Positions 14,727 to 38,762 of a stretch of 64,000 bases of DNA are shown here, one piece after another. Source of the DNA: Terriglobia bacterium. Its GTDB lineage: Bacteria; Acidobacteriota; Terriglobia; Bryobacterales; Bryobacteraceae. The stretch is taken from positions 88,740 to 152,739 of the forward strand of contig JAIQFE010000010.1 of NCBI GenBank assembly GCA_020073445.1, read 5' to 3'. A model generated the notes under the pieces. The model ran no database searches. It was not told where the DNA came from and saw nothing but the letters and a program-made list of their open reading frames with translations. The stretch's first letter is position 1, and the number at the start of each line of letters is the position of its first letter. The position numbers were made by a program, and so were the translations under genes.

Positions 14727-14741
14727 GGGATTACTGGGCTC

Positions 14742-15476: not shown

Positions 15477-15482
15477 GGGATC

Positions 15483-16442: not shown

Positions 16443-17355
16443 GTTACGTCTCACTCTCTTTGGTGTCCTCGCGCTGGGAAGCGCGTATGGGGCTTCGTGC
16501 GATCGGGCGTGTTTGAAGACCACGCTGGACCAGTATCTGACCGCCGTGGTGCAGCACAAGCCGGCGTCCGCGCCACTATCCGTCGGGTTCCGGCAGACCG
16601 AAAATGCGATGGTGCGGAGGCTGGGCACGGGCCTATGGGAAAGCGCAAAAGGTCTGGGCAAGCTCCAGCTCAGATTTTTCGATCCGGAGAGCGGGCAGGC
16701 AGGCTATTTCGGAACACTGGAAGAGGCGACCGGCCCCGCCATCGTGACGCTGCGGATGAAGGTCGAGGACCGCAAAATCTCCGAGGCTGAATGGGTACTG
16801 GCGAGGAAGGGCGATCCGGGCTTGGGGCCCCTTGGTGGTGGACAGGCAACAGCAGCCTACAACGATGTCCCTAATCTGCTGGCACACGCACCGGGCGAGC
16901 GCGTTGCTCCGAAAGCCGGGCGCGTTTCCCGCTCGGAGTTGATCGCCATCACCAACAGCTATTGGGACGGGCTGTCGGCGCATGACGGAAAGCTCATTCT
17001 GGCGCACCCCGGCTGCACGCGACTCGAGAACGGGACGCTGACGACGCAACGGTCGCTTCCGGCGGGCGGCGAGACGGACTGCACATCGGAAGGAGCCATG
17101 GCGAATATTTTCGCGGTGACGGCCCGGCGCTATCCTATCGTCGATGAAGAGGCCGGAGTGGTGCTTAGCCTGGTGCTCTTTGAGCGCAAGCCAGGCATCG
17201 CGATGCGCCGCAATCTTCTGGCCGAGTGGTTCTTCATCGAACAGGGCAAGATTCGCTCGATCTACGCGTCGATGTACTATCCAGATGCGGAAGCGATGGC
17301 GCCGAACTGGCCGCCCTATGACGGCAACTGGCCGATTTTGCCGGCGCCTAAATAG
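16441..17355 (+). CDS. Hypothetical secreted protein.
   Basis: 304 aa. Signal peptide MLRLTLFGVLALGSAYGASC. Protein-like composition, no family recognised. Its 3' end overlaps the convergent NMO gene by about 40 nt. Confidence 0.5.
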   Translation: MLRLTLFGVLALGSAYGASCDRACLKTTLDQYLTAVVQHKPASAPLSVGFRQTENAMVRRLGTGLWESAKGLGKLQLRFFDPESGQAGYFGTLEEATGPAIVTLRMKVEDRKISEAEWVLARKGDPGLGPLGGGQATAAYNDVPNLLAHAPGERVAPKAGRVSRSELIAITNSYWDGLSAHDGKLILAHPGCTRLENGTLTTQRSLPAGGETDCTSEGAMANIFAVTARRYPIVDEEAGVVLSLVLFERKPGIAMRRNLLAEWFFIEQGKIRSIYASMYYPDAEAMAPNWPPYDGNWPILPAPK

Positions 17356-18437
17356 GCAGCGGCGTCGTCCCAGATCTGTTGGACCAGATCGGCGGCTGGG
17401 ATCGGTCGTGCCAGCGCGGCGGATTGACCTGCCCACACTTGCATGCGATGGTGGTCGCCGGCGGCGGCACCGGCTTCTTTCATCGCGGCGGTCAAGCCTC
17501 GCTGGACCGGATACGGTGCGGGAAGCGGAGCATCGTGCGATGCAGCCGCTCGTACATAATTGGTCGCGATCGCGCGGCCCAGGCGTCCGGTAAAAGCTCT
17601 GGTGAGTGTGGTGCCTTCGGGTTCGAGATCGACGAGCGCGTTTGCCCACGCGGGATGGGTCTGGGCTTCCGGACACCGTAGAAAGGCCGTCCCGAGCATC
17701 GCCGTACTGGCGCCCAGAGTCAAAGCGGCGGCCACGCCCCGGCCGTCGCCAATCCCGCCGGTCGCGATGATCGGGAGGTCGATCACATCGGCAAGACGGG
17801 GGACCAGTGCGAACAAACCCACGCCTTGGCGCTCGGCGGCCGCAGGGTCGGCTGGGTAAAAGAACGATCCTCGATGGCCACCGGCTTCATAACCCTGGGC
17901 GATGATCGCATCCGCACCCGCATCGCGCGCGAGTTTTGCCTCGTGGATCGTGGTGGCGGTTGCGAACCACGCGATACGACGGTCCTTTAGCCGTGTCACA
18001 AAGGACGCGGGGAACACGCCCATGATGGAAGACACGGCTGTGGGCGCGACCTCCAGCAACGTCTCGCACTGCGCATCGAAGTCAGGCGGAACCGTGTCAC
18101 CGGCAGACGCCGGCACCGTTGGACCCCACGACTCGAGAAATTTCCTGATTCGTTCCTCGGTGGCAGGATCCCGGATTGGCTTGGGATCTGGAATCCACAG
18201 GTTTATCTGGAAGGGACCGCTGCTGCTGGATCGGAATTCCTGTACCTACGAGCGGATTCCCGCGGGTGGTGTGAGCAGGGCGCCGGTCGCACCCATTCCC
18301 CCGGTGTTCGCCACGGCGATGGAGAGGCTCGCAGGAGAGGCACCTGCCATGGGAGCAACCAGTATGGGGACCTTGAGGCCGTATGTTTCGCAGAATGAGT
18401 TGGCGCGATCGAGTGGGAGCGATCTCTTGATCGTCAT
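17316..18437 (-). pseudogene. Nitronate monooxygenase (2-nitropropane dioxygenase family) interrupted by a single in-frame TAG at 18248..18246.
   Basis: Track ORFs 18246..18437 (MTIKRSL...VPILVAPMAGASPASLSIAVANTGGMGATG...) and 17316..18116 are in the same frame. My manual translation across the gap gives ...PAGIRS*VQEFRSSSSGPFQINLWIPDPKPIRDPATEERIRKFLESWGPTVPASAGD... This contains the NMO PFgvNl-type motif (GPFQINLW) and continues into ..IIAQGYEAGGHRG.. The only interruption is one amber codon. Confidence 0.65.
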
Positions 18438-18518
18438 GCTCTCAATATAACCGCGGAATTACGTCTGAACCTTTGGGTGGTGACCGCTCCATCACCGTCG
18501 CGGCTCGGTACAGGGGAG

Positions 18519-19892
18519 CTATTCCGGCGGCTCGTCCGGCAGATCGTCGATGCGATTTTCGAAGCGAGTATATTGCCCCAAAAACCGCAGCGGCACTGTC
18601 CCGATCGGACCGTTACGTTGCTTAGCGATGATCAGGTCGGCCAGCCCCTTCAAGCTAAGGTCGTCCCTCTTGTAAATTTCCTCGCGGTGGATGAAGCCGA
18701 CCAGGTCGGCGTCCTGCTCAATCGATCCCGAGTCGCGGAGATCGCTCAACATCGGCTTGTGATCGCCCGGCCGTTGCTCGGAGGCGCGGCTCAACTGCGA
18801 CAAAACTAAGAAGGGCACTTCCAGGTCCTTGGCCATCAGCTTCAGGCCGCGCGAAATGGCCGATACTTCCTGGTTGCGGTTCTCGATCCGGCCCATGCTG
18901 CTCATCAACTGGAGATAGTCGATGATCACCAGCGCCAGGCCATGCGTGTTCTTCAGGCGCCGCAGCTTGGAGTGGACGTCCATCAGGTTGACGCCCGCCG
19001 AATCGTCCATAAACAGCGGCGATTCGGTAATCTGCGCCAACGTGAAATGCAGCTTTCGGCGCTCCTCTTCGTTGAGGTAGCCCGCTCGAAACTTGTGCTG
19101 GTCGACGCGCGCGCCCGCGCACAGCAAGCGCGTCAGCAAACTCGCCGACGACATTTCGAGCGAGAAGATCGCCACCGGCTTCTGCATCTGCGGATGCGTC
19201 GCCACGTGCTGCGCGATGTTGAGTGCCAAAGCCGTCTTGCCCATGGATGGCCGAGCCGCCAGGATCACCAGCTCACCTGCGTGGAGGCCGCCGGTCATCT
19301 CATCGAACTTCGCAAATCCGGTACTGAGGCCCCGCACGCGCTGGCTGGGATCGAGAAAGGCGTTGGCGCCGCCCGGGAAGCTCTCGACGATGCTGGCAGG
19401 CGAAGATAGTTGCTCGCTCGCCGATGCCTCACCCAGCTTCAGCAGCGATTCTTCCGCCGACGCCAGGATCTTGTCCGGCTGCTCTTCACCGATCAGGCAG
19501 CGATCAATAATCCTCTGCGAGCTGAAGATCAGCTTGCGCAGCATCGCCTTATCCTTGACGATGCGGACGTAGCTGTCGAGGTTGGTGATCTCCGGCAGGC
19601 CGTCGTCGAGCGAGACTAGGTACGCCAGGCCGTCCACCGATTCGAGCTGGCCCTGCTTCATCAGCTCTTCGGCGAGGGTGACGCGGTCGATGCGCTCGCC
19701 GCGCCCGTACAGATCCCGCATGCGGCCGTAGATGCGGCGGTGCTTCTCCAGGCTGAAGTCTTCGGGTGATAAGGAACCCGCGACCTGGAGGTATACTGCG
19801 TCGTTGAGCAGGATCGAGCCGAGAACCAGCCGCTCGGTGTCTACGCTTGCGGGCAGACCTTTCTCAAATGTCAGATCCGCGGTTGCCATCAT
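18519..19892 (-). CDS. dnaB: Replicative DNA helicase.
   Basis: 457 aa. DnaB N-terminal domain (..ERLVLGSILLNDAV..), Walker A ..ILAARPSMGKTALALNIA.., and ..LVIIDYLQLM.. Confidence 0.9.
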   Translation of the reverse strand: MMATADLTFEKGLPASVDTERLVLGSILLNDAVYLQVAGSLSPEDFSLEKHRRIYGRMRDLYGRGERIDRVTLAEELMKQGQLESVDGLAYLVSLDDGLPEITNLDSYVRIVKDKAMLRKLIFSSQRIIDRCLIGEEQPDKILASAEESLLKLGEASASEQLSSPASIVESFPGGANAFLDPSQRVRGLSTGFAKFDEMTGGLHAGELVILAARPSMGKTALALNIAQHVATHPQMQKPVAIFSLEMSSASLLTRLLCAGARVDQHKFRAGYLNEEERRKLHFTLAQITESPLFMDDSAGVNLMDVHSKLRRLKNTHGLALVIIDYLQLMSSMGRIENRNQEVSAISRGLKLMAKDLEVPFLVLSQLSRASEQRPGDHKPMLSDLRDSGSIEQDADLVGFIHREEIYKRDDLSLKGLADLIIAKQRNGPIGTVPLRFLGQYTRFENRIDDLPDEPPE

Positions 19893-20107
19893 TTTGGGGT
19901 GCTTCTTACCTTAACCGGTTCGTCACAGTCCGTTACACTTTTTTTTGGCCGTTCCCCTTCTCGCACTTACAACGAGGAAAAACCTGTGGAAGATCGTGCG
20001 CGAACGGTGAACGCCAACTTGTTGAGATCAAAGCCGCGGCGGAACGATTTCCACACACACTCTCTAAATCATTTTACCGCGATTGTGTTTTGGAGGGTGG
20101 ACGGCGC

Positions 20108-20872
20108 CTATTGCTTAGCGTCGTCCTTCTTGGCTTCGTCTTTCGGGGGCTCGGCAGGAAGCGGTTCGATCACCGCCGTGGTGATCTTGTCGAGCCGTGG
20201 GAAGTTCTTTTCAAGGAATGCATTGCCCTGGTTCATGATCTCGCCTTGGAGATTCGTGACCTGCTCGCCGTAGCCGGTATACAGCATGTCGAGATTATCC
20301 AGACCTTCGATCACTTCGCCAAAGGGGGCGAATCCCATGCTGTCCAGGTAACCGTTGTCTACCTTGCTGATGAAAACCTGCACGGAGCGGCTATTCTTGT
20401 CGCCAGTGGAGGCAAAGGTGACCATGGCGCGTTTGTTGGACTGAATCGGACGGTCGTCGAACATGGTGTGTTCCATCCAGACTCGCGATATTTCCGGCCG
20501 TGAAGGGATTCCGAACTGCGCGAATTGCTTGGTGGAGCGGAAGATGACGTTGTTGTTATAGAAACCGGCGCGAACCAGGTTATAGAAGCGGTCGGCGCCA
20601 ATGGGCGCCCAGTTCTTGGTGACGCGGATGACGATGGGTCCCTTGGTGGTGTTCAGCTTCACCAGGTACACCGGGGGCGCTTTCGCGTTCAGCGTCGACG
20701 GGTCGAGCAGATTCGGTCCAGCTTTAGCCTTGGTGGCCGCTTTGGGCGCACCGGCCTTTGGCGCGCTTTTTGCAGCGGGTGCCGGGGCAGATTTGGTCTG
20801 CGCGAGCGCGGCGGCACACACCGCTGCCAACAACATGATCGAGGAGAGGAAAGCGTTCTTCATACGAAGCAT
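20108..20872 (-). CDS. Secreted cyclophilin-type peptidyl-prolyl cis-trans isomerase with a C-terminal K/D/E-rich tail.
   Basis: 254 aa. Signal peptide and an Ala/Lys/Pro-rich linker, then the cyclophilin core (..VIFRSTKQFAQFGIPS.., ..MVTFASTGDKNSRSVQVFI..). Confidence 0.7.
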   Translation of the reverse strand: MLRMKNAFLSSIMLLAAVCAAALAQTKSAPAPAAKSAPKAGAPKAATKAKAGPNLLDPSTLNAKAPPVYLVKLNTTKGPIVIRVTKNWAPIGADRFYNLVRAGFYNNNVIFRSTKQFAQFGIPSRPEISRVWMEHTMFDDRPIQSNKRAMVTFASTGDKNSRSVQVFISKVDNGYLDSMGFAPFGEVIEGLDNLDMLYTGYGEQVTNLQGEIMNQGNAFLEKNFPRLDKITTAVIEPLPAEPPKDEAKKDDAKQ

Positions 20873-20881
20873 TATTCTATC

Positions 20882-21475
20882 TCAGATTCCGAAGGGTTCC
20901 GTCAGCGTTTTCGTCCACTCGTTGAAGGCGATCTTTTCTCCCTGGCGGTTGTGCCACCAGCCGTTGGACGTAAAGTATTTGTCCGGCGCGGCCACGACGA
21001 CGAATTTCAGGTCTGGCGCGGCGGTGCGGTAGATCTTTCCAGCGCGGCGGGTATGGTAATCGCTGGTGACCAGCAGCACTTTGTGCGCGCCCATCTGGCG
21101 CAGTCGCACAATCGCATCGTGCGCTTCCTCTTTGGTGGATAGGGCGTCGTTTTCAAAATGCAAGAAGTAAGACGCGGGGTATCCGGACTTCACCGCAAAG
21201 GGTATCGCCAGGTCGCACTCGTATTGCCCGTAGACTCCGGAAGGCCCGCTGACCAGGACCTTGGAGACGTAGCCTCGCCGGGCGAGTTGAGCGGCTTTGA
21301 GGATCCGGTTGCCTTCTCCATCGCCTGCCAGCACCAGGGCGATATCGGCCTTTTCTGGCGGATCGGCCTGGATCAGGTAGGAACCGAGTTCTGTCAGGAC
21401 TGCGTTATGGAAAATGACCCCGAGGATGACAATGGCGATGAAAAGGAGCGCAAGAATACGAGTCGAACGCTTCAA
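20882..21475 (-). CDS. YdcF/DUF218 (ElyC/SanA-like) family protein.
   Basis: 197 aa. N-terminal TM helix. DUF218 pattern ..ADIALVLAGDGEGNRILKAAQLARRGYVSKVLVSG.. and ..VLLVTSDYHTRRA.. Confidence 0.7.
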   Translation of the reverse strand: MKRSTRILALLFIAIVILGVIFHNAVLTELGSYLIQADPPEKADIALVLAGDGEGNRILKAAQLARRGYVSKVLVSGPSGVYGQYECDLAIPFAVKSGYPASYFLHFENDALSTKEEAHDAIVRLRQMGAHKVLLVTSDYHTRRAGKIYRTAAPDLKFVVVAAPDKYFTSNGWWHNRQGEKIAFNEWTKTLTEPFGI

Positions 21476-21481
21476 TGAAGT

Positions 21482-22096
21482 TTACTGCTCGTCGGAGCCG
21501 CGCTGGTCCAGCCTGCCCACGGATTTCAGCCGCTGGAACATTCGCTCGATTTCTTCTTCCTCTTCGGGCCGCAGCAGAGGCCGGTAGACCGGGGAAGATT
21601 GACGTTGGGGGCCGGACTCGAGTGTCTTTCGAGGTTCGGATCTTTTCTCAAGCCCAGGCTTTTCTCCCGGCTCTCCCCAAGCCTGACGATAGGGAATCCC
21701 GTCGAGCAGCGCGTTGCGCGAGTAGCGTCGCAGGTGACGCAGCAAACTGGTGGAGGAATCCAGGTCGCCGGCGTATAATAGGAACACGCGGCGGTCGGTG
21801 GAAAGCGTCAGAGAGACGACCAGAGGAGCAATCCAGCCGGTCTGGTCTAGCCTGCGAATTTCGCGCCATAGGATAATCCGCCGGCCCAGTTGCAGATGGG
21901 TCTCATAGATTTCGATTTCGGGTTGCCACAGGAGCGTGATCAACGCCACCGAAGTTACGCCGAAGAGTCCGGCCGCGATCCAGGTGGAAGGCCAGCGCAG
22001 GCCGGTCCAGGCTGAGAAGATGGTTCCGCAGATCGCCAGAAGCGCAAACAGAAGGTAGCGGCGTGAAGGTCGGTAGCGGGCCAGCGGGCGACTCAC
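21482..22096 (-). CDS. Hypothetical membrane protein (two N-terminal TM helices, acidic C-terminus).
   Basis: 204 aa. Its ATG overlaps the stop of the upstream small ORF in an ATGA arrangement. No family recognised. Confidence 0.5.
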   Translation of the reverse strand: MSRPLARYRPSRRYLLFALLAICGTIFSAWTGLRWPSTWIAAGLFGVTSVALITLLWQPEIEIYETHLQLGRRIILWREIRRLDQTGWIAPLVVSLTLSTDRRVFLLYAGDLDSSTSLLRHLRRYSRNALLDGIPYRQAWGEPGEKPGLEKRSEPRKTLESGPQRQSSPVYRPLLRPEEEEEIERMFQRLKSVGRLDQRGSDEQ

Positions 22097-22359
22097 CCTT
22101 TCAGACTACCACTAGTCTTTGGGGGACAGGAAGCTGTTTCGTGGTTGGCTAAATCTGTCCAGCGGACGTACCACTTGGCAAAGTCGATGTCCGCCTCCGA
22201 GGGGATCAAGGGGAAGCTGGCGATCACTTCAGGGATGGACGTTTGATCGAGCTTCCCTTCGGTACGGATCCGCTCTATAGCGCTTGAACTTGCCGTCGGA
22301 CCAATGACGAAAGTGCAATCGCCAGGGACCATTGGTTCCAGTTCTACGGAGGTCATATC
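22093..22359 (-). CDS. Small hypothetical protein (about 88 aa).
   Basis: Internal ATG of track ORF 22093..22593 (MTSVELEPMVPGDCTFVIGPTASS...). The upstream part of that track ORF is Arg-rich wrong-frame-like sequence. The ATG overlaps the TGA of the 22353..22595 ORF (GATATGACC), and the stop overlaps the next gene's start (ATGA). Confidence 0.4.
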   Translation of the reverse strand, partial: DMTSVELEPMVPGDCTFVIGPTASSSAIERIRTEGKLDQTSIPEVIASFPLIPSEADIDFAKWYVRWTDLANHETASCPPKTSGSLKG

Positions 22360-22595
22360 GAAATACCCTTTCCCATGCGTTCGCACTGCTTGAAAAGATC
22401 GGCTTCCATGACGAGCACAGGCCGCCTGAGCCAGAGCACCGTCGCCACTCCGCCAGCGAAGTCGCCCGGTTGCCATTCCACGATCGAGCCCGCCGGTATG
22501 ACGGTATCGGAGATGGAGTCTTTGGCCACGGCGATCAGCGGAACATTCACTCGAAAAGCGACTAACTTGTTTGGATTTGTCTTGCTGTACCACAT
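22353..22595 (-). CDS. Small hypothetical protein (80 aa).
   Basis: MWYSKTNPNKLVAFRVNVPLIAVAKDSISDTVIPAGSIVEWQPGDF... has a beta-rich, protein-like pattern. It is the first gene of a minus-strand run of five closely spaced or overlapping genes ending with the cyclophilin. Confidence 0.4.
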   Translation of the reverse strand: MWYSKTNPNKLVAFRVNVPLIAVAKDSISDTVIPAGSIVEWQPGDFAGGVATVLWLRRPVLVMEADLFKQCERMGKGISI

Positions 22596-22725: not shown

Positions 22726-23604
22726 TTACTGCGTGGTCGGGAACGTCTTGGAGATGTGGTCGTGCCAGGTGAGGTTTTCTTCATCGACCAGCGCCCAGAC
22801 CAAACCGAGTCCTGCGGAAAGCAGGCTCAGCAGGCTGGCGATCTGGCGAATGCCGCGCTGCTCGCGGTCCGGCCGCCGGCCGTCGAAATCCACCAGGCGC
22901 AATCCGGCGAAGCGCATCCCCGGGGAATCGCCGTTGGCCAGGCACCACAGAGCCCGATAGAACAGCGCGATGACAACCGTGACTCCGAGCATGAAGGACA
23001 GAGCCTGGCGATCCAGGGCTACCTGGCCTCCTGACAGGAAGAAAATCGTCAGGAATACGGCCACGCCCATCAGAACCAAGCTGCCGTCCACGGCCGCCGC
23101 GACCAGACGATGCGTGGGAGCCGCCACGGGCGCATCGCAATCGATGGTCTCTCCCGGCTGGACGCGGACTTCTGCCGGCGATTCCTGAAATCCCAGGCTT
23201 CGCTGTAGGTGGCTCTGCTGGGAATCCGAACGGCGATGCTGCGACCGCATGGGAGAAACCCCGCGAGTCGCCGGGCGTTGCCGGGTCGCCGTCCGAGTCG
23301 TGTCGCGATGTGTGTCGCGATGATAGGGGTGCAGCGGTGTCAGCGTCGGGATGGGAATGACTTTGCTTCCCGCGGTCCCGTCCCGAAAAAGAGAGGTCTG
23401 ATAGTTGGGAGTCTCCTGCGGCTGCGCGGGAAGGGGATCCTCCGCGGCAAAAACATCCAGGGCGGGCGCGGTGGCGGCCCCACTAATCCCATTCGCGCTG
23501 CGGACAGGGAAAGGCCCGGGCGCATCGCCGTTGAGGCGCCGACCGCAATGGACACACCGATCCTCCGCCTCTTCGTTCACGGCGCGGCAGTGCGGGCAAT
23601 GCAT
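22726..23604 (-). CDS. RDD-family membrane protein with an N-terminal zinc-ribbon (start at MHCPHC; the track ORF extends to 23748).
   Basis: CxxC...CxxC zinc ribbon (MHCPHCRAVNEEAEDRCVHCGRR), a long Pro/Arg/Thr-rich linker, then a C-terminal RDD-like TM domain (..RLVAAAVDGSLVLMGVAVFLTIFF..GMRFAGLRLVDFDG..). The upstream 48 codons (MLRRIKEKKEIKALKRNRSRAR...) may or may not be translated. Confidence 0.6.
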   Translation of the reverse strand: MHCPHCRAVNEEAEDRCVHCGRRLNGDAPGPFPVRSANGISGAATAPALDVFAAEDPLPAQPQETPNYQTSLFRDGTAGSKVIPIPTLTPLHPYHRDTHRDTTRTATRQRPATRGVSPMRSQHRRSDSQQSHLQRSLGFQESPAEVRVQPGETIDCDAPVAAPTHRLVAAAVDGSLVLMGVAVFLTIFFLSGGQVALDRQALSFMLGVTVVIALFYRALWCLANGDSPGMRFAGLRLVDFDGRRPDREQRGIRQIASLLSLLSAGLGLVWALVDEENLTWHDHISKTFPTTQ

Positions 23605-23698
23605 AATCGGGTCTGGTTCCTTGGACTCCGGCCACCTTGAACTTGGGACGCTTGGTGACCTTTTTGGTCTTGACTGTTCTAGCCGCGCTCTGCTACGG

Positions 23699-26071
23699 TT
23701 GCGCTTGAGAGCTTTTATCTCTTTCTTCTCTTTTATCCTTCGTAACATAAACCAGCCGATTTGTCACGGACTTTGTGTGCTAGTCCTGGCCGGTTTACTT
23801 ACGCCCAGCACTACGTTACAAGCCCAAACCTACCGGCCCACCTTACCTCCGCCCGCCGTTCCGGTCCAGCCGGGCCCCAACCCCAATCTGGCGATCCGGC
23901 CGCCCCGGCCCACGGCTCCCGGACCCGGCGAGACCGCCAAGACCCAGGGGGATCAAGAGGAATCCGATGGCAAGGTGCTGCACCTGCGCGGCAACGCCCG
24001 CGTCGAGACGGCGGATGCTCTGCTCACCGCCGATGAGATCGACTACAACCAGGAAACACACGAAGCTGAAGCTCGCGGCAAGGTCCGTTACGAGAGCTTC
24101 TCTCACGGCGAGAAGCTGAATTGCGACAGGGCGGAATACAACACGGAGAGCAAGACCGGAAAATTCTATAACGTCAACGGAACTTCGCCCGCCCGCATCG
24201 AGGCCCGCCGTGGACTGTTGACCACGCAGAATCCCTTTTACTTTAGCGGCGAATGGGCTGAAAAGACGGAGGATCGCTACCTCCTGCACAACGGCTTCCT
24301 CACCGATTGCCTGATCCCGGCACCCTGGTGGAGGCTCAAGGGGCCGACCTTCGACATCATCCCCGGGGACCGGGCGATCTCCAAGGCGTCGTGGTTCTAC
24401 GTCAAAGAAGTTCCCATCTTTTACACGCCATACTTCTACAAATCGTTGAAGAAGCAGCCGCGCCGCAGCGGCTTGCTCACCCCTAGCATCGGCAACAGCT
24501 CCATTCGGGGAAAGACCGTGGGCGTCGGCTATTTCTGGGCGATCAATCGCAGCTACGACCTTACCTATCGCGGATTGTTCTACTCCCAGACCGGGTTTGG
24601 ACATCAGGCCGATTTTCGCGGCGTGGTAAGCAAGAACACCTACTTCGATGTCTCCCTCTACGGCATAACGAGCACCAATGCCAACGCCATCTCGCCTAGC
24701 GGATTGGTGCTGTCGGTGGAAGGAAAGTCGGACTTGGGCAAGGGTTGGGAGGCGCGTGGCGATCTCAAGTATTTGTCATCCTTCGTTTTCCGCCAGCAGT
24801 TTACGCAGTCCTTCGACGAGGCCGTCTCGTCGGAAACTCACTCGGTGGGCTACATCACCAAGCACTGGTCCGATTACGGCTTCAATTTCGTGGCGGAGCG
24901 CAACGTCAATTTTCAAAGCACCGCTCCTAACGATGAGATCGTGCTTCGTAAGCTGCCGGAGGTGCAATTTACCGAGCGTGAGCATGAGGTGGGGAAACTG
25001 CCCGTATGGTTCTCCTTCGATAGCAGTTTCGGGTTGGAGCGCCGCACCGAGCCCGAGTTCCAGACCCGCCAGTTCGTACAGCGCGTGACTTTCGAGCCGC
25101 GCGTGATGACCGCCGTGCACTGGCACGGATTCGATCTTGCGCCCAGCTTCGGCGTTCACGAGATCGCCTACGATTCCCGCATCACCAACAATGTGGTGAG
25201 CGGCGACAATGTGCAGCACTTCGCCCGAGACGTCTCACTGGATGTATCTGTGCCGCCGCTTTCGCGGATCTTCGATGCTCCGAAGTGGATGGGTCGCGGA
25301 AAAGGAGCCAAGCTCAAACACGTCATCGAGCCGCGGGTGACCTATCGCTACGTCACCGGGATCGAAGATTTTAACAATGTAGTCCGGTTCGACGATACGG
25401 ATATTCTCAACGATACGAACGAAGTCGAGTACTCGCTGACCAATCGGCTGCTGGCGAAAGACAGCAACGGAAGCGTGTCCGAGGTACTGAGCTGGCAGCT
25501 ATGGTACAAGCGCTATTTGGATCCAACCTTCGGCGGCGCCGTGATCCCCGGCCAGCCGAACGTCCTGATGAGCACCGTGGATATCACGGGCATTCCGTTT
25601 GTGGATGGGGCCCGGCATCAGTCGCCGGTGGTGAGCGTGCTCCGGTACCAGTCGAACCTGAACCTGGAATGGCGCGCGGATTACGATCCGGTCCAGCATG
25701 GAATCATCGACAGCGGAATCAGTGTCGACCGGCGCGTAAAGCAGTTGTTCGTTTCACTGGGAGACTACCTGTTGAAGAGCAATCCTCTGCTGGGGGCTCC
25801 GGGCTCCAATCAGTTGCGCGGACAGGTTACCTATGGCGGCGATAACCGGCGCGGGTGGAACTATGGGTTCAGCGCGTTTTACGACTATCGCCTGGGCGTG
25901 ATGCAGTTCGCGCAGAGCCAGGTGACCTACAACACCGATTGTTGCGGCTTCAGCGTGCAATACCGGCGATTCAACTTCGGTACGCGCGATGAGAACCAGT
26001 TCCGTGTGGCGTTCGCGGTGTCTAACATCGGCAGCGTGGGAACGTTACGGAAGCAGGATCGGATCTTCTAG
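23699..26071 (+). CDS. lptD: LPS-assembly outer-membrane protein LptD (OstA family), probable TTG start.
   Basis: The track ORF starts 23405, but its first about 100 codons are antisense to the RDD gene. A TTG at 23699 gives the signal peptide LRLRAFISFFSFILRNINQPICHGLCVLVLAGLLTPSTTLQAQ. OstA-like N-terminal domain (..GNARVETADALLTADEIDYNQETHEAEARGKVRYE..) and a large beta-barrel-sized C-terminal region. The cognate lptE lies about 9 kb downstream. Confidence 0.6.
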   Translation: MRLRAFISFFSFILRNINQPICHGLCVLVLAGLLTPSTTLQAQTYRPTLPPPAVPVQPGPNPNLAIRPPRPTAPGPGETAKTQGDQEESDGKVLHLRGNARVETADALLTADEIDYNQETHEAEARGKVRYESFSHGEKLNCDRAEYNTESKTGKFYNVNGTSPARIEARRGLLTTQNPFYFSGEWAEKTEDRYLLHNGFLTDCLIPAPWWRLKGPTFDIIPGDRAISKASWFYVKEVPIFYTPYFYKSLKKQPRRSGLLTPSIGNSSIRGKTVGVGYFWAINRSYDLTYRGLFYSQTGFGHQADFRGVVSKNTYFDVSLYGITSTNANAISPSGLVLSVEGKSDLGKGWEARGDLKYLSSFVFRQQFTQSFDEAVSSETHSVGYITKHWSDYGFNFVAERNVNFQSTAPNDEIVLRKLPEVQFTEREHEVGKLPVWFSFDSSFGLERRTEPEFQTRQFVQRVTFEPRVMTAVHWHGFDLAPSFGVHEIAYDSRITNNVVSGDNVQHFARDVSLDVSVPPLSRIFDAPKWMGRGKGAKLKHVIEPRVTYRYVTGIEDFNNVVRFDDTDILNDTNEVEYSLTNRLLAKDSNGSVSEVLSWQLWYKRYLDPTFGGAVIPGQPNVLMSTVDITGIPFVDGARHQSPVVSVLRYQSNLNLEWRADYDPVQHGIIDSGISVDRRVKQLFVSLGDYLLKSNPLLGAPGSNQLRGQVTYGGDNRRGWNYGFSAFYDYRLGVMQFAQSQVTYNTDCCGFSVQYRRFNFGTRDENQFRVAFAVSNIGSVGTLRKQDRIF

Positions 26072-26337
26072 CAGACAGGCAGAATACCGTGGAGAATTTC
26101 ACACGTCCCGCGTCAGGGGCGCCCGCGTCGAACCGGAACAACAAGTACGAATCGGCGACCTCTAATGTCTCCAGCAGCTTTGTCCGAGTGGCTCGTAAGC
26201 CAGCCGCAAGGTCGGGCTCACTTCAACAACACCGTTTTCAGGGACGCCAGGCGTCAACCGGAAGATAATGCGAAAGCAAAGGCTTCGGGGCACCCAGCAA
26301 ACACACGCTCCTCACCCGAAGCGCGTATCATCACTAA

Positions 26338-29043
26338 ATGGCCGGACACCACCTACTCCTCCATCTGCCGGAGAACTGGTCCAATGACGAACGCGGTGCT
26401 TTCTTCGAAGACTTTATCGGCGACCTTTTGCGCCCAATGCGTCTTGCTGTGGAGAAGCGGCTGCGCGTCACGGGCATGGAAATCGATTTGTTGGCCCGGG
26501 GGTTAGACCAACCCCGAAAGGTTCTGGTCGAGTGCAAAGCGCAACGCGACGCGCTGCCAGCCGATGTAATATCCAAGCTCCTAGGGAATGTCACAATTCG
26601 TGGGGCAGACAGCGGGTGGCTCTTCTCTGCCAGCGACTTGGGGAAAGATGGCCGAGGTCAGTGGGAGGAGATACAGAGACAGCCGCAGCTAGCTTCGAAA
26701 TTCATGTGGTTTCCGCCCGAACGGATAGTGGCGATACTTCTCGACCAGCGAACAATTGTTGACCCGACAACCGCTCTGCTGAAACTAACGCCGCAAACCG
26801 AAACCTTTGGAGATGCGACTCTGATCTGTGCGCCCAAAGGCAAGTTTTGGCTAATAGAAATACTGCGCGACGGTCTTCCTGCTTCTTATACCGTAGTCAA
26901 TGCCGCGGACGGTGCACCCCTGGACGAGGAACAAGCTCTAGAGGTGGCGGGGTTTTCAGATCGGTTCATCGCACTGACTTTCGAAGACGTGCGTGCTTCA
27001 ACCGTCTCAATCTATCAACCCCCTCCACATTCGCCCATCGCTCGCGTTGTGCCAGGAGACACGTGGGATGACCTTCGCCCAGCCCGTCCGAACGACTTTG
27101 TAGGTAGAGACGATCTCATCAAGGATATTTTTCAATTCCTTGAGCAGGTGCGAATGGGCAATACGGCAACCAGGACCTTCGCCGTTCAAGGACCTAGTGG
27201 CTGGGGCAAGAGTTCCCTCGTGATCAAACTTGTTGACCTCGTCAGTAAGGGTCGGCGAATAACGAACTGCTCGTTGACGGCAGTCGACAGCCGTTCTGCT
27301 ACATCCGCAGCGTTCGTAAGTGGAGCTATTCGCCTTGCCTTGAATGACGCAGCGGCTGCGGGGCTACTCAGCAACGCAAATCACGACATTGTTAGCCTGA
27401 CGCATCCGCTTGATTCTCCGGATATCTTGTCCGCAGCAGAGCAATTGAATCAAAACAGCGGTGTGGTGATACTCGTCTTTGATCAATTCGAGGAGCTTTT
27501 CACCAAGGAAGCGCTTTTCGAAACCTTCAACGCCATCAGAGAACTGAGCGTTGATCTAGACAGCAAACAAATTCCGATTGTGCTCGGATTTGCATGGAAA
27601 ACGGATGTATCTTTGCCCCAGCAGCATCCGGCGTATCATTTATGGCACTCACTCGCCGATAGGCGAAAGGATTTCAGAGTCCGACAGTTTGGCGCACCAG
27701 ACATTGGCAAAGTTATCACGCACGCCCAACGCCAAATTGGCCTCTCTTTGGTCCCGGCCTTGAGAACAAGATTGATAGAACAATGCCAAGGGTATCCTTG
27801 GTTGCTCAAGAAACTGCTCGTGCATGTAGCCAAGCGCTTAGAGGAGGCTGCTTCTCAGTACGAACTCCTTGAACGAGAATTGGATGTTCAAGCATTGTTT
27901 GAAGAAGACTTAGCTGGGCTCGCATCCGACCAAGTACGCTGTCTCAAATATGTCGCCGAGCGAGCTCCAGCGTATGTCTCAGAGGTTGAAGAGCATTTTA
28001 GCTCGGAAATCGCGAATTTCTTGCTGTCGAAGAGGCTGTTGGTCCGAAGCGGATTGAACTACGTAATTTATTGGGACATCTTCCGTGACTATCTGGTCGA
28101 GGGCCGTGCCCCTCAAATACCTTGGACACGAACGTTCCAGCGCGATCCCAACTCAGCAGTTCAAGCGGTAAGGTGTGTTTCACAAGAGCAACCGATTTCG
28201 GTAAAGCGCATCTCCGAACTGCTCGGCGGGTCCGAGAGAGGTTGGGTTAACGTGATGAGCGATCTTGTAGCCCTCCAGCTTGTAGACAGGATCGCAGAAG
28301 ACAGTTATCGTCTTGCCCCGCACGTCAAGTCCATATCCCCTGTTGACCTAGCTGTCCACATCCATGGACAGCTCTCACGCCACGTCGTATGTCGAGAACT
28401 GACAGCGATAGAGAGAGATGCTATCGTTTCTAACGACATGCTGGACCGTCTAGTAGAGAAAACAAGGCCAGCGAGCACTCCCTCTCCCGTCGTAATCCAT
28501 CAGTACGCGATGAATCTGAAGAAGTGGTTATTGTTTTCCGGACATCTAGAAGAGCGCGGAAGTTTTCTCTACCGGCCAGCCGGTAAGGGTTCACAAATGG
28601 GCCTGCTGAAAGCCCGCAAGAATCGAGGGAAGAAGTTCTTAGGGAGTGGAACACCGGATGCGCTCATGAAACTTGTCGCCCTCCTTGCAGGAGGGGGTAG
28701 CGATGGCGTCCCCGAAGCACAACTGATGAAAATGGGCCTAAGAAATGCAGTTTATGACGCGGTCGCGTTGCAACTCGTCGATCGAACTGAAGATCGAGCG
28801 GTGCGGTTGGCTCGCTCTCTGCGCGACACGCGCGATTTTGATCAGATCGTTCGCCGTGAGATCATCAAACAGCCAAGCACTGCTATCGTTGCGGCCGCAC
28901 TACGTGACTCACCCGACATCTCGAATTTGGCGCTGGGAGATAAGTTGAGAACTGGGCTTCAACAAGATTGGAGACCAACGTCGGGGCTTCGATACGCGAA
29001 TGGTGTGAGACGGTATTTTGAATGGGCTTCGCGGCCAACATAA
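26338..29043 (+). CDS. Fusion protein: Mrr-type PD-(D/E)xK nuclease domain, NB-ARC/STAND-like P-loop NTPase, and tandem winged-helix modules. Candidate single-gene antiphage/defence NTPase; not assignable to a named system.
   Basis: 901 aa. PD-(D/E)xK residues: FEDF (aa 23-26), GMEIDLL (D50), KVLVECK (E65, K67). NB-ARC-like entry FVGRDDLIKDIFQFL, then Walker A QGPSGWGKSSL (nt 27190-27216). Walker B VVILVFDQFEE (nt 27463-27495). GxP-like CQGYPWLL (nt 27784-27807). The C-terminus has repeated wH-like modules ending DLVALQLVDR (nt 28261) and DAVALQLVDR (nt 28756). Hand-counted 60-nt lines inside the gene give 45-50% GC against 63-67% in the flanks. Confidence 0.75.
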   Translation: MAGHHLLLHLPENWSNDERGAFFEDFIGDLLRPMRLAVEKRLRVTGMEIDLLARGLDQPRKVLVECKAQRDALPADVISKLLGNVTIRGADSGWLFSASDLGKDGRGQWEEIQRQPQLASKFMWFPPERIVAILLDQRTIVDPTTALLKLTPQTETFGDATLICAPKGKFWLIEILRDGLPASYTVVNAADGAPLDEEQALEVAGFSDRFIALTFEDVRASTVSIYQPPPHSPIARVVPGDTWDDLRPARPNDFVGRDDLIKDIFQFLEQVRMGNTATRTFAVQGPSGWGKSSLVIKLVDLVSKGRRITNCSLTAVDSRSATSAAFVSGAIRLALNDAAAAGLLSNANHDIVSLTHPLDSPDILSAAEQLNQNSGVVILVFDQFEELFTKEALFETFNAIRELSVDLDSKQIPIVLGFAWKTDVSLPQQHPAYHLWHSLADRRKDFRVRQFGAPDIGKVITHAQRQIGLSLVPALRTRLIEQCQGYPWLLKKLLVHVAKRLEEAASQYELLERELDVQALFEEDLAGLASDQVRCLKYVAERAPAYVSEVEEHFSSEIANFLLSKRLLVRSGLNYVIYWDIFRDYLVEGRAPQIPWTRTFQRDPNSAVQAVRCVSQEQPISVKRISELLGGSERGWVNVMSDLVALQLVDRIAEDSYRLAPHVKSISPVDLAVHIHGQLSRHVVCRELTAIERDAIVSNDMLDRLVEKTRPASTPSPVVIHQYAMNLKKWLLFSGHLEERGSFLYRPAGKGSQMGLLKARKNRGKKFLGSGTPDALMKLVALLAGGGSDGVPEAQLMKMGLRNAVYDAVALQLVDRTEDRAVRLARSLRDTRDFDQIVRREIIKQPSTAIVAAALRDSPDISNLALGDKLRTGLQQDWRPTSGLRYANGVRRYFEWASRPT

Positions 29044-29232
29044 AGTGGTTCTTGCCCGTGATCATCCCCAAAGTTCGGCTTCTGGGAACTTGGGGTTGGC
29101 TCCGTCAGAATGGATGGCGACTCGTACAAACTGAAGCCGAACCTAGCCAGGAAGCGGAGATTCGGGCAGCTGGTCCTAACCGCCTGTTGGTTCGAAGGAC
29201 GCCCGATGCTCAACGGGTTTATGAGGTTGTTT

Positions 29233-29577
29233 CTAGTCCGTCTTGGTCGTGGTGCTGGCGGGCTTCGATTCGGTCTTAGTCTCGGATGACTTCGTCTCGG
29301 AGGACTTCGATTCGGCAGGTTTGGATTCGGTGGACTTTGACTCGGCCTTTGTGTCTGCGTCTTTTTTATCCGAGTCTTTCTTCTGAGAAGAAGATCCGCT
29401 CTTAGCGTAGTCGGTAGCGTACCAACCGGTGCCCTTGAGGCTGAATCCGGACAAGGATATCAACCGTTCCACCGTTCCTCCGCAGGCTTCGTGAACGGTC
29501 AGCGGGGCGTCGGCGAACTTCTGGATCACTTCAAACTTTTCGCCACACTTCGAGCATAGGTATTCGTACAACGGCAT
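29233..29577 (-). CDS. FmdB-family zinc-ribbon regulatory protein with a repetitive S/K/E/T-rich C-terminal tail.
   Basis: 114 aa. MPLYEYLCSKCGEKFEV...HEACGG is the FmdB CxxC...C motif. The tail is ..KKDSDKKDADTKAESKSTESKPAESKSSETKSSETKTESK.. Confidence 0.75.
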   Translation of the reverse strand: MPLYEYLCSKCGEKFEVIQKFADAPLTVHEACGGTVERLISLSGFSLKGTGWYATDYAKSGSSSQKKDSDKKDADTKAESKSTESKPAESKSSETKSSETKTESKPASTTTKTD

Positions 29578-29592
29578 AAACTTTGCGGCGTC

Positions 29593-30819
29593 CTAAGGAA
29601 CGATCGATTTCAGCGACTCGTAACCGTGCTTCAGGATCTCGTCCTCGCCGGGTTTCGCCGGCTGAGCGGGCGTTATCGGCTGAACGTTCGGCGAATCGTC
29701 ATCGGGTTCGACAATAGCCGTGGTTTCCGCTTGCAGCACGTTGGGAGTGACGTGCACGTCCTGGATGGCTTTCCCGCTGGGGGTATAGTATTTGGCGACC
29801 GAAAGGATCACCGCGCTGCCGTCGTCCATGGTGATGGCCTTGCGAATGGCGGCGTCTCCGTAGGTCGGTTCGCCGACCACCGTGGCGCGTTTGGAGTCAA
29901 GCAAAGCACCCGCGGCGATCTCCGCCGCTCCCGCCGTCCCGCGATTCACCAGCACCACCAGAGGCAGTTTGGTGATCGCCTTGGACGCAGTAGCCGGATG
30001 ATCCTGGCGCGGGGATTTCTGTCCCTGCGTGTAGGTGATCAGACCCTTGTCCATGAACAGATTTGCTACCGCGATGCCTTCTTCGTCCGGTCCAAGTGCG
30101 CAATAACGGAGGTCCAGCATCAGGCGTTTGGCGCCCTGCTTTTCGAGGTCGGTGATCTTCGTGGCGATGTCCTTGGCGCGGCCCGCTTGCAGGGTCGAGG
30201 TGGTGATCAGGCCGATGGCATCGGGGCCCTGATCGGTGACCAGCTTCCCGCTGACCGCCGGATACACCAGCGGAGCGCGCACCAGAGTCATCTTCTGCGG
30301 ATCGGCTTGCTTCGGCGTGAGCACGCTCATCTCAATCGAGGAGCCGGGCTCGCCTTGCAGCAAAATCTCGGCGAATGCCAAAGGCATGTCGCGCGTGGCG
30401 ATATTGTTGATGGATTCGATAACGTCGTTGGTCGAAAGGCCGGCTTTCGCGGCGGCCGATCCAGGCAGGGCGTCGACGACGGTCAGATAGCCCAAGCGCC
30501 GCGCCAGGGTCAAGCCGACGTCGGCCTTCCCGGTGCCTTTTTCCTTCTGATACTGCTTATATTGGTCCGCGTTGAGGTAGCTGGCGAAAGGATCCAGCGC
30601 TTCGAGCATGCCGTTGATCGCCCCGGCCGTCACGGCCTTCATGTCGGGTTCCTCGACGTAGTCCTGCTTGATGTGCGACAGAACGTCGGTGTAGACACCT
30701 AACTGCGTGTAAGGCTGATCTCCGGTACCAGCGCCCCGGCCTCGTACGGCCCCGAACAGCAACAACACGACCAAGCAGGTGGAGGATGCAACGACGGCGA
30801 ACTTAAAACGACCATTCAT
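29593..30819 (-). CDS. S41-family carboxyl-terminal processing protease.
   Basis: 408 aa. N-terminal TM/signal. PDZ-like segment, then the S41 catalytic region (..LVVLVNRGTAGAAEIAAGALLD.., ..GEPTYGDAAIRK..). Confidence 0.8.
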   Translation of the reverse strand: MNGRFKFAVVASSTCLVVLLLFGAVRGRGAGTGDQPYTQLGVYTDVLSHIKQDYVEEPDMKAVTAGAINGMLEALDPFASYLNADQYKQYQKEKGTGKADVGLTLARRLGYLTVVDALPGSAAAKAGLSTNDVIESINNIATRDMPLAFAEILLQGEPGSSIEMSVLTPKQADPQKMTLVRAPLVYPAVSGKLVTDQGPDAIGLITTSTLQAGRAKDIATKITDLEKQGAKRLMLDLRYCALGPDEEGIAVANLFMDKGLITYTQGQKSPRQDHPATASKAITKLPLVVLVNRGTAGAAEIAAGALLDSKRATVVGEPTYGDAAIRKAITMDDGSAVILSVAKYYTPSGKAIQDVHVTPNVLQAETTAIVEPDDDSPNVQPITPAQPAKPGEDEILKHGYESLKSIVP

Positions 30820-38291: not shown

Positions 38292-38413
38292 CACGATCCT
38301 TGATGCTTAAGTTGTCGGTCGGCTTCGCCTCTATGTGATCGATCATGAGGACCTGCATGGGGCGCTCCGGTAATTCCAAACGCGGTTTTGCGTGGCGAGG
38401 ATAGAATCGGAGG

Positions 38414-38761: not shown

Positions 38762-38762
38762 A

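Follow-up and report, generated by a model that had tools for sequence, protein, structure and literature searches.

Between the core genes lptD and fmdB-ctp lies a GC-poor stretch of roughly 3 kb, which the initial annotation described as a one-gene islet and proposed to be an insertion. Where does this gene come from, and what might its product do? We have followed up both questions within the window, that is, the whole 64-kb stretch of DNA analysed here. We think it likely that the locus holds a horizontally acquired one-gene insertion at the lptD/fmdB junction, with a single-protein, defence-type STAND NTPase acting by the mechanism proposed below as its cargo.

The features of the locus are collected in Table 1, and the Pfam matches given there bear out the naming of lptD, fmdB and ctp as neighbours. 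In the relatives L001-L005, lptD and ctp have amino-acid identities of 79-88% and 88-95%, respectively. The mechanical open reading frame of lptD begins at 23405; the start in the table is that of the gene called in L082, a contig identical to the window, whose coordinates 7440-9734 correspond to window positions 23777-26071. Only one gene is found in the islet, as had been claimed, and the overlapping open reading frames 26165-26506 and 29022-29279 have no family matches. Searches of the islet spacers for promoters, terminators or structured RNA gave nothing above chance; in the upstream spacer a promoter scan found no consensus and folding found no notable structure (z-score -0.73). A repeat motif occurs in this spacer at 26113 and 26238. 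The segments of the downstream spacer shared with L002 thus form part of the older junction rather than of the new cargo, and at most about 26090-29107 is new DNA.

Table 1. Features of the lptD/fmdB junction, in window coordinates.
Feature	Position	Strand	Details
lptD, left core flank	23777..26071	+	Pfam LptD_2, E=7.9e-14; called gene of 764 aa; stop TAG at 26069-26071
Hexamer TTCTAG, left copy (lptD end)	26066..26071		Right copy at 29231-29236 (fmdB end)
Upstream spacer, 266 nt	26072..26337		Only 26072-26089 common to the relative L001; blastn homology ends at 26089
Islet gene, 901 aa	26338..29043	+	Mrr nuclease / nSTAND1 NTPase / tandem winged-helix
Mrr_cat PD-(D/E)xK nuclease domain, aa 20-111	26395..26670	+	E48, D50, E65, C66 and K67 invariant in 36 family members
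nSTAND1 / AAA_16 P-loop NTPase, aa 252-504	27091..27849	+	Walker A G288, G290, K291, S292, S293; Walker B D382-Q-F-E-E386
C-terminal module, aa 596-901	28123..29040	+	Duplicated winged-helix units, aa 604-660 and 773-824, a helical bundle after each
Downstream spacer, 189 nt	29044..29232		29108-29172 and 29222 onward common to L002 (blastn, alignment)
FmdB-type zinc-ribbon gene, right core flank	29233..29577	-	Pfam Zn_ribbon_8, E=9e-16; stop is CTA on the + strand, 29233-29235
ctp, carboxy-terminal processing protease, core gene	29593..30819	-	Pfam Peptidase_S41 E=1.2e-35, PDZ_6, CtpB_N-like

The compositional anomaly is real, although smaller and less sharply bounded than first described. Positions 26150-29230 have 53.5% G+C against 60.7% in the remainder of the window, a difference of about 7 points rather than the 15-20 points implied by an earlier contrast of 45-50% with 63-67%. 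The line counts behind that contrast hold in part: the flanking 60-nt lines at 25801, 26101 and 29641 contain exactly the 38, 40 and 40 G+C reported, and lines with 27, 28 and 30 of 60 are present in the open reading frame, but they are extremes of a gene that averages 31.9 of 60 (53%; range 26-37) over its 45 lines. Similarly, GC does not drop abruptly at about 26150; the left edge is gradual and the deepest values (0.49-0.50) are reached at 27350-28100. Nor does it recover at about 29230, as values of 0.53-0.56 persist to about 29600. Here the fmdB gene is GC-poor too (GC1 0.417, GC3 0.704) because of its amino-acid composition and its repetitive tail (units of 15 nt repeated at 29299-29345 and once more, as a fourth copy, at 29257-29273), a cause other than that of the islet.

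Sliding GC, codon-usage and tetranucleotide analyses, which the initial annotation had suggested as checks, all single out the islet as an outlier in the window. Over sliding segments of 3,081 nt (mean GC 0.603, SD 0.018) the minimum of 0.530 falls within it at 26551, about 4 SD low, and the tetranucleotide distance over 3 kb has its window maximum there (z = 5.3). The gene itself has a GC of 0.531. Its GC3 of 0.545 compares with 0.743 +/- 0.048 for the 38 open reading frames of the window with at least 200 codons (z = -4.15), and in codon usage, too, it scores lower than any other of these 38 (z = -3.7), while GC1 (0.626) and GC2 (0.422) are both typical of the window. The deficit lies at synonymous sites, with GC1 and GC2 normal, and therefore the dip is not an amino-acid effect. 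Thus, the protein-independent deviation that characterizes acquired islets is found in GC3, codon usage and tetranucleotides alike.

The comparison with related genomes, also proposed at the outset, reveals the corresponding empty site. Among 80 related Bryobacteraceae/Acidobacteriota lptD loci, none carries the islet gene. In L004 and L005, lptD and fmdB are directly contiguous and their stop codons overlap (in synthetic form, the empty junction reads ...GGATCGGATCTTCTAGTCCGTCTTGG...). A metagenome scan, whose junction pattern demands the same stop-codon overlap, added four contigs in which the two genes abut (L103, L105, L106 and L107), and at least six relatives in all have an empty site of this form. 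In L021, L018, L032 and L044 the genes are separated by gaps of 3-63 bp, and in L001, L002, L003, L016, L037 and L039 the junction is filled by unrelated cargo. The two hallmarks of an acquired islet that rest on comparison, absence from relatives and an intact empty site, are therefore present, at a distance set by flanks only 81-89% identical to the window in relatives without the gene; the metagenome pattern scan returned only relatives at 81-87% flank identity and no empty-site allele from the same species (>95% identity).

Two outcomes had been named that would have spoken against an insertion: frequent dips of this kind at K/E/S-rich genes, and the same gene at the same locus in relatives. 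Neither occurred, since at the islet gene only GC3 is low, no other 3-kb stretch of the window approaches its low GC, and the second is excluded by the 80 loci; the reading of the locus as an inserted islet is supported on these grounds.

The islet arrangement itself is common only to four contigs, each matching the window at 100% identity. Every identical copy is a contig from a metagenome, and the window therefore probably stems from a metagenome-assembled genome, which raises the thought that the islet is an assembly chimera. We consider this hardly credible, as the four contigs were assembled independently (ERZ27248000, ERZ27247997, SRR15677227 and SRR15677229) and agree completely across both junctions and the islet.

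Acquisition is supported not only by the synonymous-site anomaly and the empty or differently filled junctions of relatives, but also by homologues in unrelated contexts. The five closest homologues (84-86% amino-acid identity) lie in five different genomic contexts, and each is GC-poorer than its flanks. These genes keep a GC of 0.52-0.54 in hosts of 57-67%. The family, with more than 700 homologues, WP_309153600 from Lysobacter and WP_263343418 from Burkholderia among them, is found across Acidobacteriota, Proteobacteria, Myxococcota and Deinococcota, distant full-length homologues reside on plasmids, and 392 representative clusters carry the C-terminal module; phage genomes yielded no homologue. 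At the nucleotide level, similarity to the nearest homologues does not extend beyond the open reading frame, starting exactly at 26338 and ending at 29029-29036, and for this reason we rejected a mobile unit defined by shared flanks. Defence-type genes are typically GC-poor, mobile and patchy in distribution. In this context, P0001, one of the five closest homologues, has a complete Lamassu system (LmuA, LmuB, LmuC) 5.5 kb away and adjoins a CHAT protein, P0012 adjoins PDC-S01, and P0009 adjoins a resolvase and a TIR-effector-like gene. In the window the islet gene stands alone among housekeeping genes, outside any defence island.

Divergence within the family informs on the age of the event and on the constraint acting on the gene. 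The dN/dS of 0.04-0.05 indicates strong purifying selection, and the dS against the nearest known homologues is saturated (>1.5), so that no recent donor is identified. From the composition and the absence in relatives with flanks 81-89% identical, the acquisition may nevertheless be termed recent. The saturated dS against all known homologues, together with the lack of a recent donor, would also fit a gene that is native to the locus and was lost from the relatives, its low GC3 reflecting weak expression or rare-codon selection. The low GC that the family retains in many high-GC hosts could likewise be due to selection, for instance for limiting the expression of a toxic nuclease. However, several lineages would each need a precise loss that restored the overlapping stops, and the scenario would have to account for a gene carried by none of the 80 relatives, for nearest homologues in five unrelated contexts of other hosts and for unrelated cargo at the same junction elsewhere. 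We disfavour this scenario as very improbable.

How the gene was inserted can be approached only through the junctions. In agreement with the initial annotation, we found no integrase or transposase domain among the Pfam families of genes called within +/-10 kb, no tRNA in the 64 kb that could serve as integration target and no significant flanking repeat; Rfam families had no match in the 64 kb and terminal inverted repeats were not found at the islet. A mobility signature of this kind is common in acquired islets but not obligatory. The sole flanking repeat is the hexamer TTCTAG at the ends of lptD and fmdB, where empty sites hold a single TTCTA(G/A). The pair could be a 6-bp target duplication, albeit a statistically unsupported one, as local alignment of the lptD 3' end with the right junction scored no better than shuffled sequences (p=0.59). 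Alignment and shuffle test likewise gave no support to the idea that a right-junction motif common to the window, L001 and L002 is a decayed lptD duplicate; the motif may instead represent an older spacer or the terminator of fmdB. The 85-aa open reading frame overlapping the gene end (29022-29279) was considered as what is left of a partner gene, namely the 311-aa gene located after P0001 in L081, and this was dismissed because the two show no similarity. Because no mobility gene is present, the gene most likely would have entered either by homologous recombination via the conserved flanks or by illegitimate recombination.

The encoded protein of 901 aa combines three parts. Its N-terminal domain matches the Mrr_cat profile (PF04471) and retains the catalytic E...D...ExK, which identifies it as an Mrr-type nuclease. 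The central domain matches PF20703 (nSTAND1) over aa 252-504, where its score of 55.8 bits (E=8e-15) exceeds the cutoff of 27.1; the matches to Mrr_cat and AAA_16 likewise pass their respective Pfam cutoffs. Residues of both Walker motifs, A and B, are invariant in the family. In the AlphaFold2 model (pLDDT 87.6) the NTPase is followed by a helical region and then a winged helix at aa 530-577 (27925-28068), and profile, Walker motifs and this succession of domains agree in identifying an nSTAND1 protein. UniRef accordingly names homologues 'nSTAND1 domain-containing NTPase'. The best fold matches are STAND/NLR proteins and AAA+ initiators, among them MalT, NLRP3, NOD2, NRC2 and ZAR1. The C-terminal module, presumably the sensor or target-binding part, is strongly basic (pI ~10, net charge ~+12). 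Each of its two recognition helices has few basic residues and an Asn...Asp pair that is invariant (N638/D642 and N803/D807), and family members match MarR_2 and HTH_24. At the level of named families, NCBIfam gave no family-level match for the protein, and PADLOC v2, Avs models included, none that was convincing (best SspC, E=0.0016, and PDC-S02, E=0.008, over short stretches); neither a catalogued Avs family model nor a sensor structural cluster was matched.

The closest parallels in overall design are the Avs proteins. The effector of Avs4 is Mrr-like, and characterised Avs proteins are considerably larger than 901 aa. Avs3 and Avs4 were reportedly first described by Gao et al. in Science in 2022. 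Like Avs proteins, the islet protein comes from a single gene and has three parts, a DNA nuclease effector at the N-terminus, a STAND NTPase in the middle and a presumed sensor at the C-terminus, and Avs genes too are patchy, horizontally transferred and often near other defence genes. In contrast, its NTPase belongs to the nSTAND1 clade, and in place of a large TPR-like, WD40 or FGE-sulfatase-type sensor it has a basic tandem winged-helix C-terminus of about 300 aa, below the sensor cutoff of 400 aa used in a 2026 STAND census. A 2026 preprint counts Avs3, Avs4 and Avs7 as characterised families, Avs7 was described by Lee et al. 2026 (PMC13581612), and a role as antiviral sensors is established for STAND proteins whose N-terminal effector is a nuclease (PMC13581612).

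The nSTAND1 clade was defined as one of conflict-system NTPases in predicted counter-invader systems, and the architectures described rely on multi-gene systems and on adaptor domains of the effector-associated or death-like type (Kaur, Burroughs, Iyer, Aravind 2021, eLife, PMC8195603). The islet protein shares with them its PF20703 match above the gathering score. It differs in being a stand-alone fusion of a direct nuclease effector and a winged-helix C-terminus, in which adaptor domains were not detected, nor was a partner gene. A further comparison can be drawn to Mrr (PF04471), a type IV restriction endonuclease that depends on DNA modification, and to DpnI-like enzymes that join a nuclease to a winged helix, given the same catalytic family as Mrr, an intact E...D...ExK and winged-helix domains. 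In Mrr the winged helix is N-terminal and the nuclease C-terminal. This order is reversed in the islet protein, where a STAND NTPase of about 350 aa separates the nuclease from the winged helices, of which there are two, each with the unusual invariant Asn/Asp pair.

By analogy, the protein is best read as an NLR/Avs-like defence nuclease with a predicted function. As in Avs and NLR-like proteins, the basic C-terminal winged-helix pair would bind a cue or target derived from the invader. Binding would free the nSTAND1 NTPase for NTP binding and oligomerisation, and the oligomer would gather the N-terminal Mrr-type PD-(D/E)xK nuclease domains for DNA cutting. The outcome could be that the invader is stopped or that the infected cell is killed.

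The same acquired islet could instead encode an NTP-dependent, type IV-like restriction enzyme that depends on DNA modification or structure and is not a protein-sensing suicide switch. Its winged helices would read the state of the DNA (methylated, otherwise modified or in an unusual conformation), and the NTPase would license Mrr cutting. The conserved and basic C-terminal module, the MarR_2 and HTH_24 matches of family members and a nuclease of the Mrr type IV family are in line with this, as is the existence of modification-dependent enzymes that fuse PD-(D/E)xK and winged-helix domains, namely DpnI (PMC3424567, PMC4117772) and winged-helix-fusion endonucleases (PMC11037411). However, the invariant Asn...Asp pairs and the scarcity of basic residues are unusual for a DNA-reading helix, and the winged-helix fold is generic, so that fold matches do not establish DNA binding. 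Moreover, none of the characterised type IV enzymes is known to employ a STAND NTPase, which also tells against this possibility. We regard it as unlikely, though worth keeping in mind.

A related idea, to which we assign a still smaller chance, is that the family forms a distinct NLR-like class in which the basic, duplicated, Zalpha-like winged-helix array senses nucleic acid and not a phage protein. The cue would then be a conformation or modification of invader DNA or RNA, and NTP-driven oligomerisation would couple sensing directly to the Mrr nuclease. If true, the islet protein would be a STAND immune protein that detects nucleic acid by means of an unusually small sensor, and a C-terminal module that reads nucleic acid would widen the known sensing range of bacterial NLR-like proteins.

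Winged helices at the C-terminus could also belong to a regulator, that is, a STAND-type signal transducer comparable to MalT or AfsR that would use them to bind DNA and has no part in defence. Solved structures gave no significant match by sequence, and the best of them is indeed AfsR (E=0.036). Yet a regulator has no need of the invariant catalytic set in the N-terminal Mrr nuclease. There is no conserved neighbouring target operon, the context differing in every genome; in several genomes the neighbours are defence genes, and the patchy distribution across phyla and on plasmids suggests mobility. We judge a regulatory role highly improbable and retain the reading as an NLR/Avs-like defence nuclease.

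The islet is real but fairly ordinary. Its protein draws attention to a widespread architecture of predicted function, in which an Mrr nuclease is joined to an nSTAND1 NTPase and two winged helices, and whose short, basic, winged-helix 'sensor' is unlike the large, repeat-based ones that antiviral STAND proteins characterised so far possess. The locus also offers a clean textbook case of an accessory gene placed where convergent core genes normally share stop codons, with the empty site kept in several lineages. This combination of a gene at the lptD/fmdB junction and empty sites in related lineages marks the junction as a flexible and recurrently variable site in Bryobacteraceae, a lineage of soil bacteria that has received little study. 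Hotspots for defence and accessory genes between conserved core genes have been described for the pangenomes of Pseudomonas and E. coli. As in these, the site is a fixed core-gene junction that is empty in some lineages and holds varied accessory or defence cargo in others; it differs in consisting of the overlapping stop codons of two convergent genes, in its mostly metabolic or stress-related cargo and in having neither integrase nor tRNA. Most of the cargo at the junction is of that type (glyoxalase, cupin, DUF3738, DJ-1, cytochrome P460, M56 peptidase), so that the site is one of general flexibility rather than a hotspot reserved for defence. The L003 junction includes a TIR-effector-like gene in its cargo and, unlike the window, has an unmistakable 69-nt duplication.

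In an LptD scan with one genome per species, 80 related loci were recovered, all from Bryobacteraceae, Bryobacterales, Terriglobia or other Acidobacteriota (79-88% LptD identity for the nearest), and a tblastn search with the proteins of the window detected the islet gene at none of the 80. The convergent genes lptD and fmdB overlap at their stops in two of these loci, L005 and L004 (TTCTAA/TTCTAG; intergenic length -4); DNA inserted there has to restore both stop codons. The two genes are separated by 3-63 bp in L021, L018, L032 and L044, and a junction-pattern scan of metagenome contigs revealed abutting stop codons in four more loci with 81-87% identical flanks (L103, L105, L106 and L107). 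The window's homology to its relatives ends at 26089 and restarts at 29108/29222-29231, so that the window-specific DNA amounts to at most about 3.0 kb. Otherwise, the arrangement occurs only in four contigs 100% identical to the window, whose origin in four separate assemblies or runs excludes an assembly chimera. The comparison with empty sites in related genomes, suggested by the initial annotation itself, supports its view of an acquired one-gene islet.

Different cargo occupies the same junction elsewhere: cupin, glyoxalase and DUF3738 genes in L001; DUF3738, two glyoxalases, DJ-1 and DUF4331 in L002; a 304-aa TIR-effector-like protein in L003; a 471-aa ORF without Pfam match in L016; an M56 peptidase in L037; and cytochrome P460 with a MetA-pathway protein in L039. 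Three lineages with differing cargo have in common a motif of about 45-65 nt immediately downstream of fmdB (...GAAGCCGRAC..AGCCAGGAAGC..CGGGCAGYTG), which is missing at empty sites; it may be a terminator of fmdB or what is left of an earlier insert displaced by later cargo. The 1.15-kb insert of L003 (Terriglobia MAG JAIQFI010000016.1) is bounded by a 69-nt duplication of the lptD 3' end (68/69 identical); this points to a recent event, recombination or integration, that used the lptD terminus. Recombination at this terminus thus does bring cargo to the site, in one lineage at least.

For the window islet, the insertion mechanism is not visible in the sequence. TTCTAG stands at the lptD end and at the right junction and is single-copy at empty sites; the pair is compatible with a 6-bp duplication, but four of its six bases are constrained by the two stop codons, and a formal test found no repeat at the islet junctions beyond chance (p=0.59). 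The islet probably arrived either by homologous recombination, as a replacement through the conserved flanks, or by illegitimate recombination, with any signature since decayed. The called genes within 10 kb on either side are housekeeping (dnaB, LptE, DNA polymerase III delta subunit, ribosomal protein S20, asd, psd and others) and include no integrase or transposase domains, and no tRNA, tmRNA or Rfam family was found anywhere in the 64 kb.

The drop in G+C is real but was overstated in the initial annotation. A 300-nt sliding profile falls from about 0.58-0.60 upstream to 0.49-0.56 across ~26150-29600, with the lowest values (0.49-0.50) at 27350-28100. The stretch 26150-29230 has 53.5% G+C versus 60.7% in the remaining window, and among all 3,081-nt stretches (mean 0.603, sd 0.018) the minimum, 0.530 at 26551, lies about 4 SD under the mean. 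The three flank lines quoted earlier (38/60, 40/60 and 40/60) are exact on recount; the quoted lines of 27/60, 28/60 and 30/60 are present in the ORF but represent the low extremes of its 45 60-nt lines (average 31.9/60). Because, in addition, the flank lines exceed the window mean, the contrast shrinks from 15-20 points to about 7. Nor does G+C recover at 29230, as had been claimed: it remains at 0.53-0.56 to ~29600 for a different reason, the native fmdB-type gene being GC-poor. The low GC1 of this gene (0.417, with GC3 0.704) stretches the apparent dip about 350 nt past the true islet; its C-terminal tail is low-complexity and repetitive.

Within the islet gene, synonymous positions account for the deficit. 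In a comparison of the longest non-overlapping ORFs its GC1 (0.626) and GC2 (0.422) are ordinary, and its GC3 is 0.545 versus 0.743 +/- 0.048 in the 37 other ORFs of at least 200 codons (z=-4.15). The gene is also the poorest match to the window's codon usage (z=-3.7), and 3-kb windows over it show the greatest tetranucleotide distance (z=5.3). This pattern rules out amino-acid composition, the explanation named at the outset as a possible refutation. Two further ORFs of low GC3 may be spurious or further small acquired genes; at the first, which has no Pfam match, two small genes (87 and 80 aa) are called on L082, a contig identical to the window.

Coordinates of the features discussed (window positions unless a locus or amino acids are given)
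Feature	Location	Strand	Remarks
Low-GC3 ORF	22093-22593	-	GC3 0.521
RDD-family gene	22726-23748	-	divergent from lptD
lptD, mechanical start	23405		TTG, 888 aa
lptD, called start	23777		764 aa
lptD stop	26069-26071		TAG; gene matches Pfam LptD_2 (E=7.9e-14)
TTCTAG pair	26066-26071; 29231-29236
Islet gene	26338-29043	+	901 aa
Mrr_cat	aa 20-111		Pfam, above curated cutoff
nSTAND1/AAA_16	aa 252-504		Pfam, above curated cutoffs
STAND winged-helix region	aa 506-595		acidic
C-terminal winged-helix units	aa 604-660; 773-824		modelled
fmdB-downstream motif	29108-29172; L002 17121-17185; L001 ~15150-15215
FmdB-type zinc-ribbon gene	29233-29577	-	Zn_ribbon_8 E=9e-16
17-nt repeat in fmdB	29299-29345		three units, 15-nt spacing
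Fourth repeat copy	29257-29273
ctp	downstream	-	Peptidase_S41 with PDZ
Low-GC3 ORF	38392-38850	+	GC3 0.484
Shared stop codons	L004 4459-4462; L005 4407-4410	both	TTCTAG or TTCTAA; zero intergenic DNA
L003 duplication copies	12572-12640; 13787-13855
L003 cargo	12683-13597	-	304 aa; PADLOC TIR-effector model, E=6e-8
L081 low-GC block	12685-21644
L086 TIR-like gene	11087-12079
L108 gene pair	1-1709

Judged by sequence comparison, the islet gene family moves between genomic contexts. Of the protein's 713 scored homologues, the five nearest (84-86% aa) each have a different, unrelated setting: P0001 after ribonucleotide reductase and before a CHAT protein and a Lamassu system, and P0005, P0004, P0002 and P0003 next to an alpha/beta hydrolase, a PQQ dehydrogenase, a Fic protein and unknown ORFs, respectively; lptD and fmdB are absent from all five contigs. 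Nucleotide similarity to them (73-78%) runs from the start codon to within 15 nt of the stop and, being confined to the ORF, marks their flanks as unrelated. Homologue genes in high-GC hosts have 0.51-0.54 G+C versus 0.57-0.69 in their flanks, and one in a 45%-GC Smithellaceae genome has 0.46. At greater distance the family extends to Lysobacter, Burkholderia, Corallococcus, Deinococcus and Thermoanaerobaculia, plasmids carry full-length homologues (24-31% identity), and none was found in phage genomes. Against the closest homologues dN/dS is 0.04-0.05 with saturated dS, which indicates strong constraint on the protein and that no recent donor is sampled.

In an alignment of 36 sequences (32-86% identity), the nuclease residues E48, D50, E65, C66 and K67 are invariant, as are Walker A (G288, G290, K291, S292, S293) and Walker B (D382-E386). 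The last 306 aa, modelled separately (pLDDT 89.5), form two winged-helix units, each followed by a helical bundle; the units are an internal duplication (35% identity, E=5e-6), and some family members match MarR_2 or HTH_24. This region is basic family-wide (median pI 9.7, net charge +12), and its profile covers 392 representative clusters, mostly of 890-946 aa with identical layout. No family-level match was found in PADLOC models, NCBIfam equivalogs or PDB sequences. The islet cargo belongs to a known kind of system, the single-protein STAND NTPase with nuclease effector, as an uncharacterised member with an atypical presumed sensor module.

Variants occur as well. The full-length homologue P0053 (48% identity, 1,015 aa) carries PF19960 without Mrr_cat in precomputed Pfam domains, which hints at the N-terminal effector swapping typical of STAND defence proteins. 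About ten representative clusters of 407-440 aa (P0155, P0170, P0189, P0192, P0199, P0205, P0216, P0248, P0254, P0258) match only aa ~490-901 of the family. In contig L108 such a C-terminal-type gene overlaps an upstream NTPase-part gene by 4 nt, suggesting a split two-gene version; recurrent frameshifts are also possible.

Avs/NLR-like proteins share the order of effector, STAND NTPase and C-terminal module. In these proteins a ligand at the C-terminal sensor lifts autoinhibition, NTP binding makes the protein oligomerise, and the resulting proximity of the N-terminal nuclease domains activates them (PMC13581612); nSTAND1 itself was defined as a conflict-system clade (PMC8195603). Based on architecture, conserved motifs and gene neighbourhoods, we propose the same logic for the islet protein: a ligand at the C-terminal module would lift autoinhibition, NTP binding would then drive oligomerisation, and this would join and activate the nuclease domains. 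Chief among the uncertainties is the ligand of the small basic winged-helix module. It may recognise a phage protein, as Avs families do, or a nucleic acid, as do DpnI-like/Mrr-like modification-dependent enzymes (PMC3424567, PMC4117772, PMC11037411). Both recognition helices bear invariant Asn/Asp pairs, which match neither possibility neatly.

Several homologues have defence neighbours. In L081 (JGI Ga0672845_0000156, host ~65% GC), the closest homologue, P0001 (86% aa), begins a low-GC block that also holds a 311-aa unknown gene overlapping its stop, a 1,268-aa CHAT protein and, 5.5 kb away, a complete Lamassu (LmuA E=6e-85, LmuC E=1e-48, LmuB E=2e-168). PDC-S01 (E=4e-81) directly follows the homologue in L088, H-NS and DUF5906 genes share the region of the Lysobacter homologue, and in L086 P0009 stands between a resolvase and a TIR-effector-like gene, with a umuDC-like pair adjoining. 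The L086 TIR-like gene is homologous to the L003 junction cargo over its full length (29% identity, E=4e-35), which argues that one pool of defence-type genes colonises these sites. It combines an N-terminal zinc-ribbon-like CxxC...CxxC motif with a TIR / nucleoside-deoxyribosyltransferase-like C-terminus, and the two genes may represent an unnamed defence family. GC-poor, mobile defence-type genes between core genes are common; less ordinary are the presumed winged-helix sensor and a flexible site that lies at overlapping stop codons and has been used repeatedly.

At the left flank, the mechanical lptD ORF and the RDD-family gene have over 300 nt in common. On the identical contigs lptD is called with a later start, though inconsistently (764 or 816 aa), and thus the mechanical start is over-extended.
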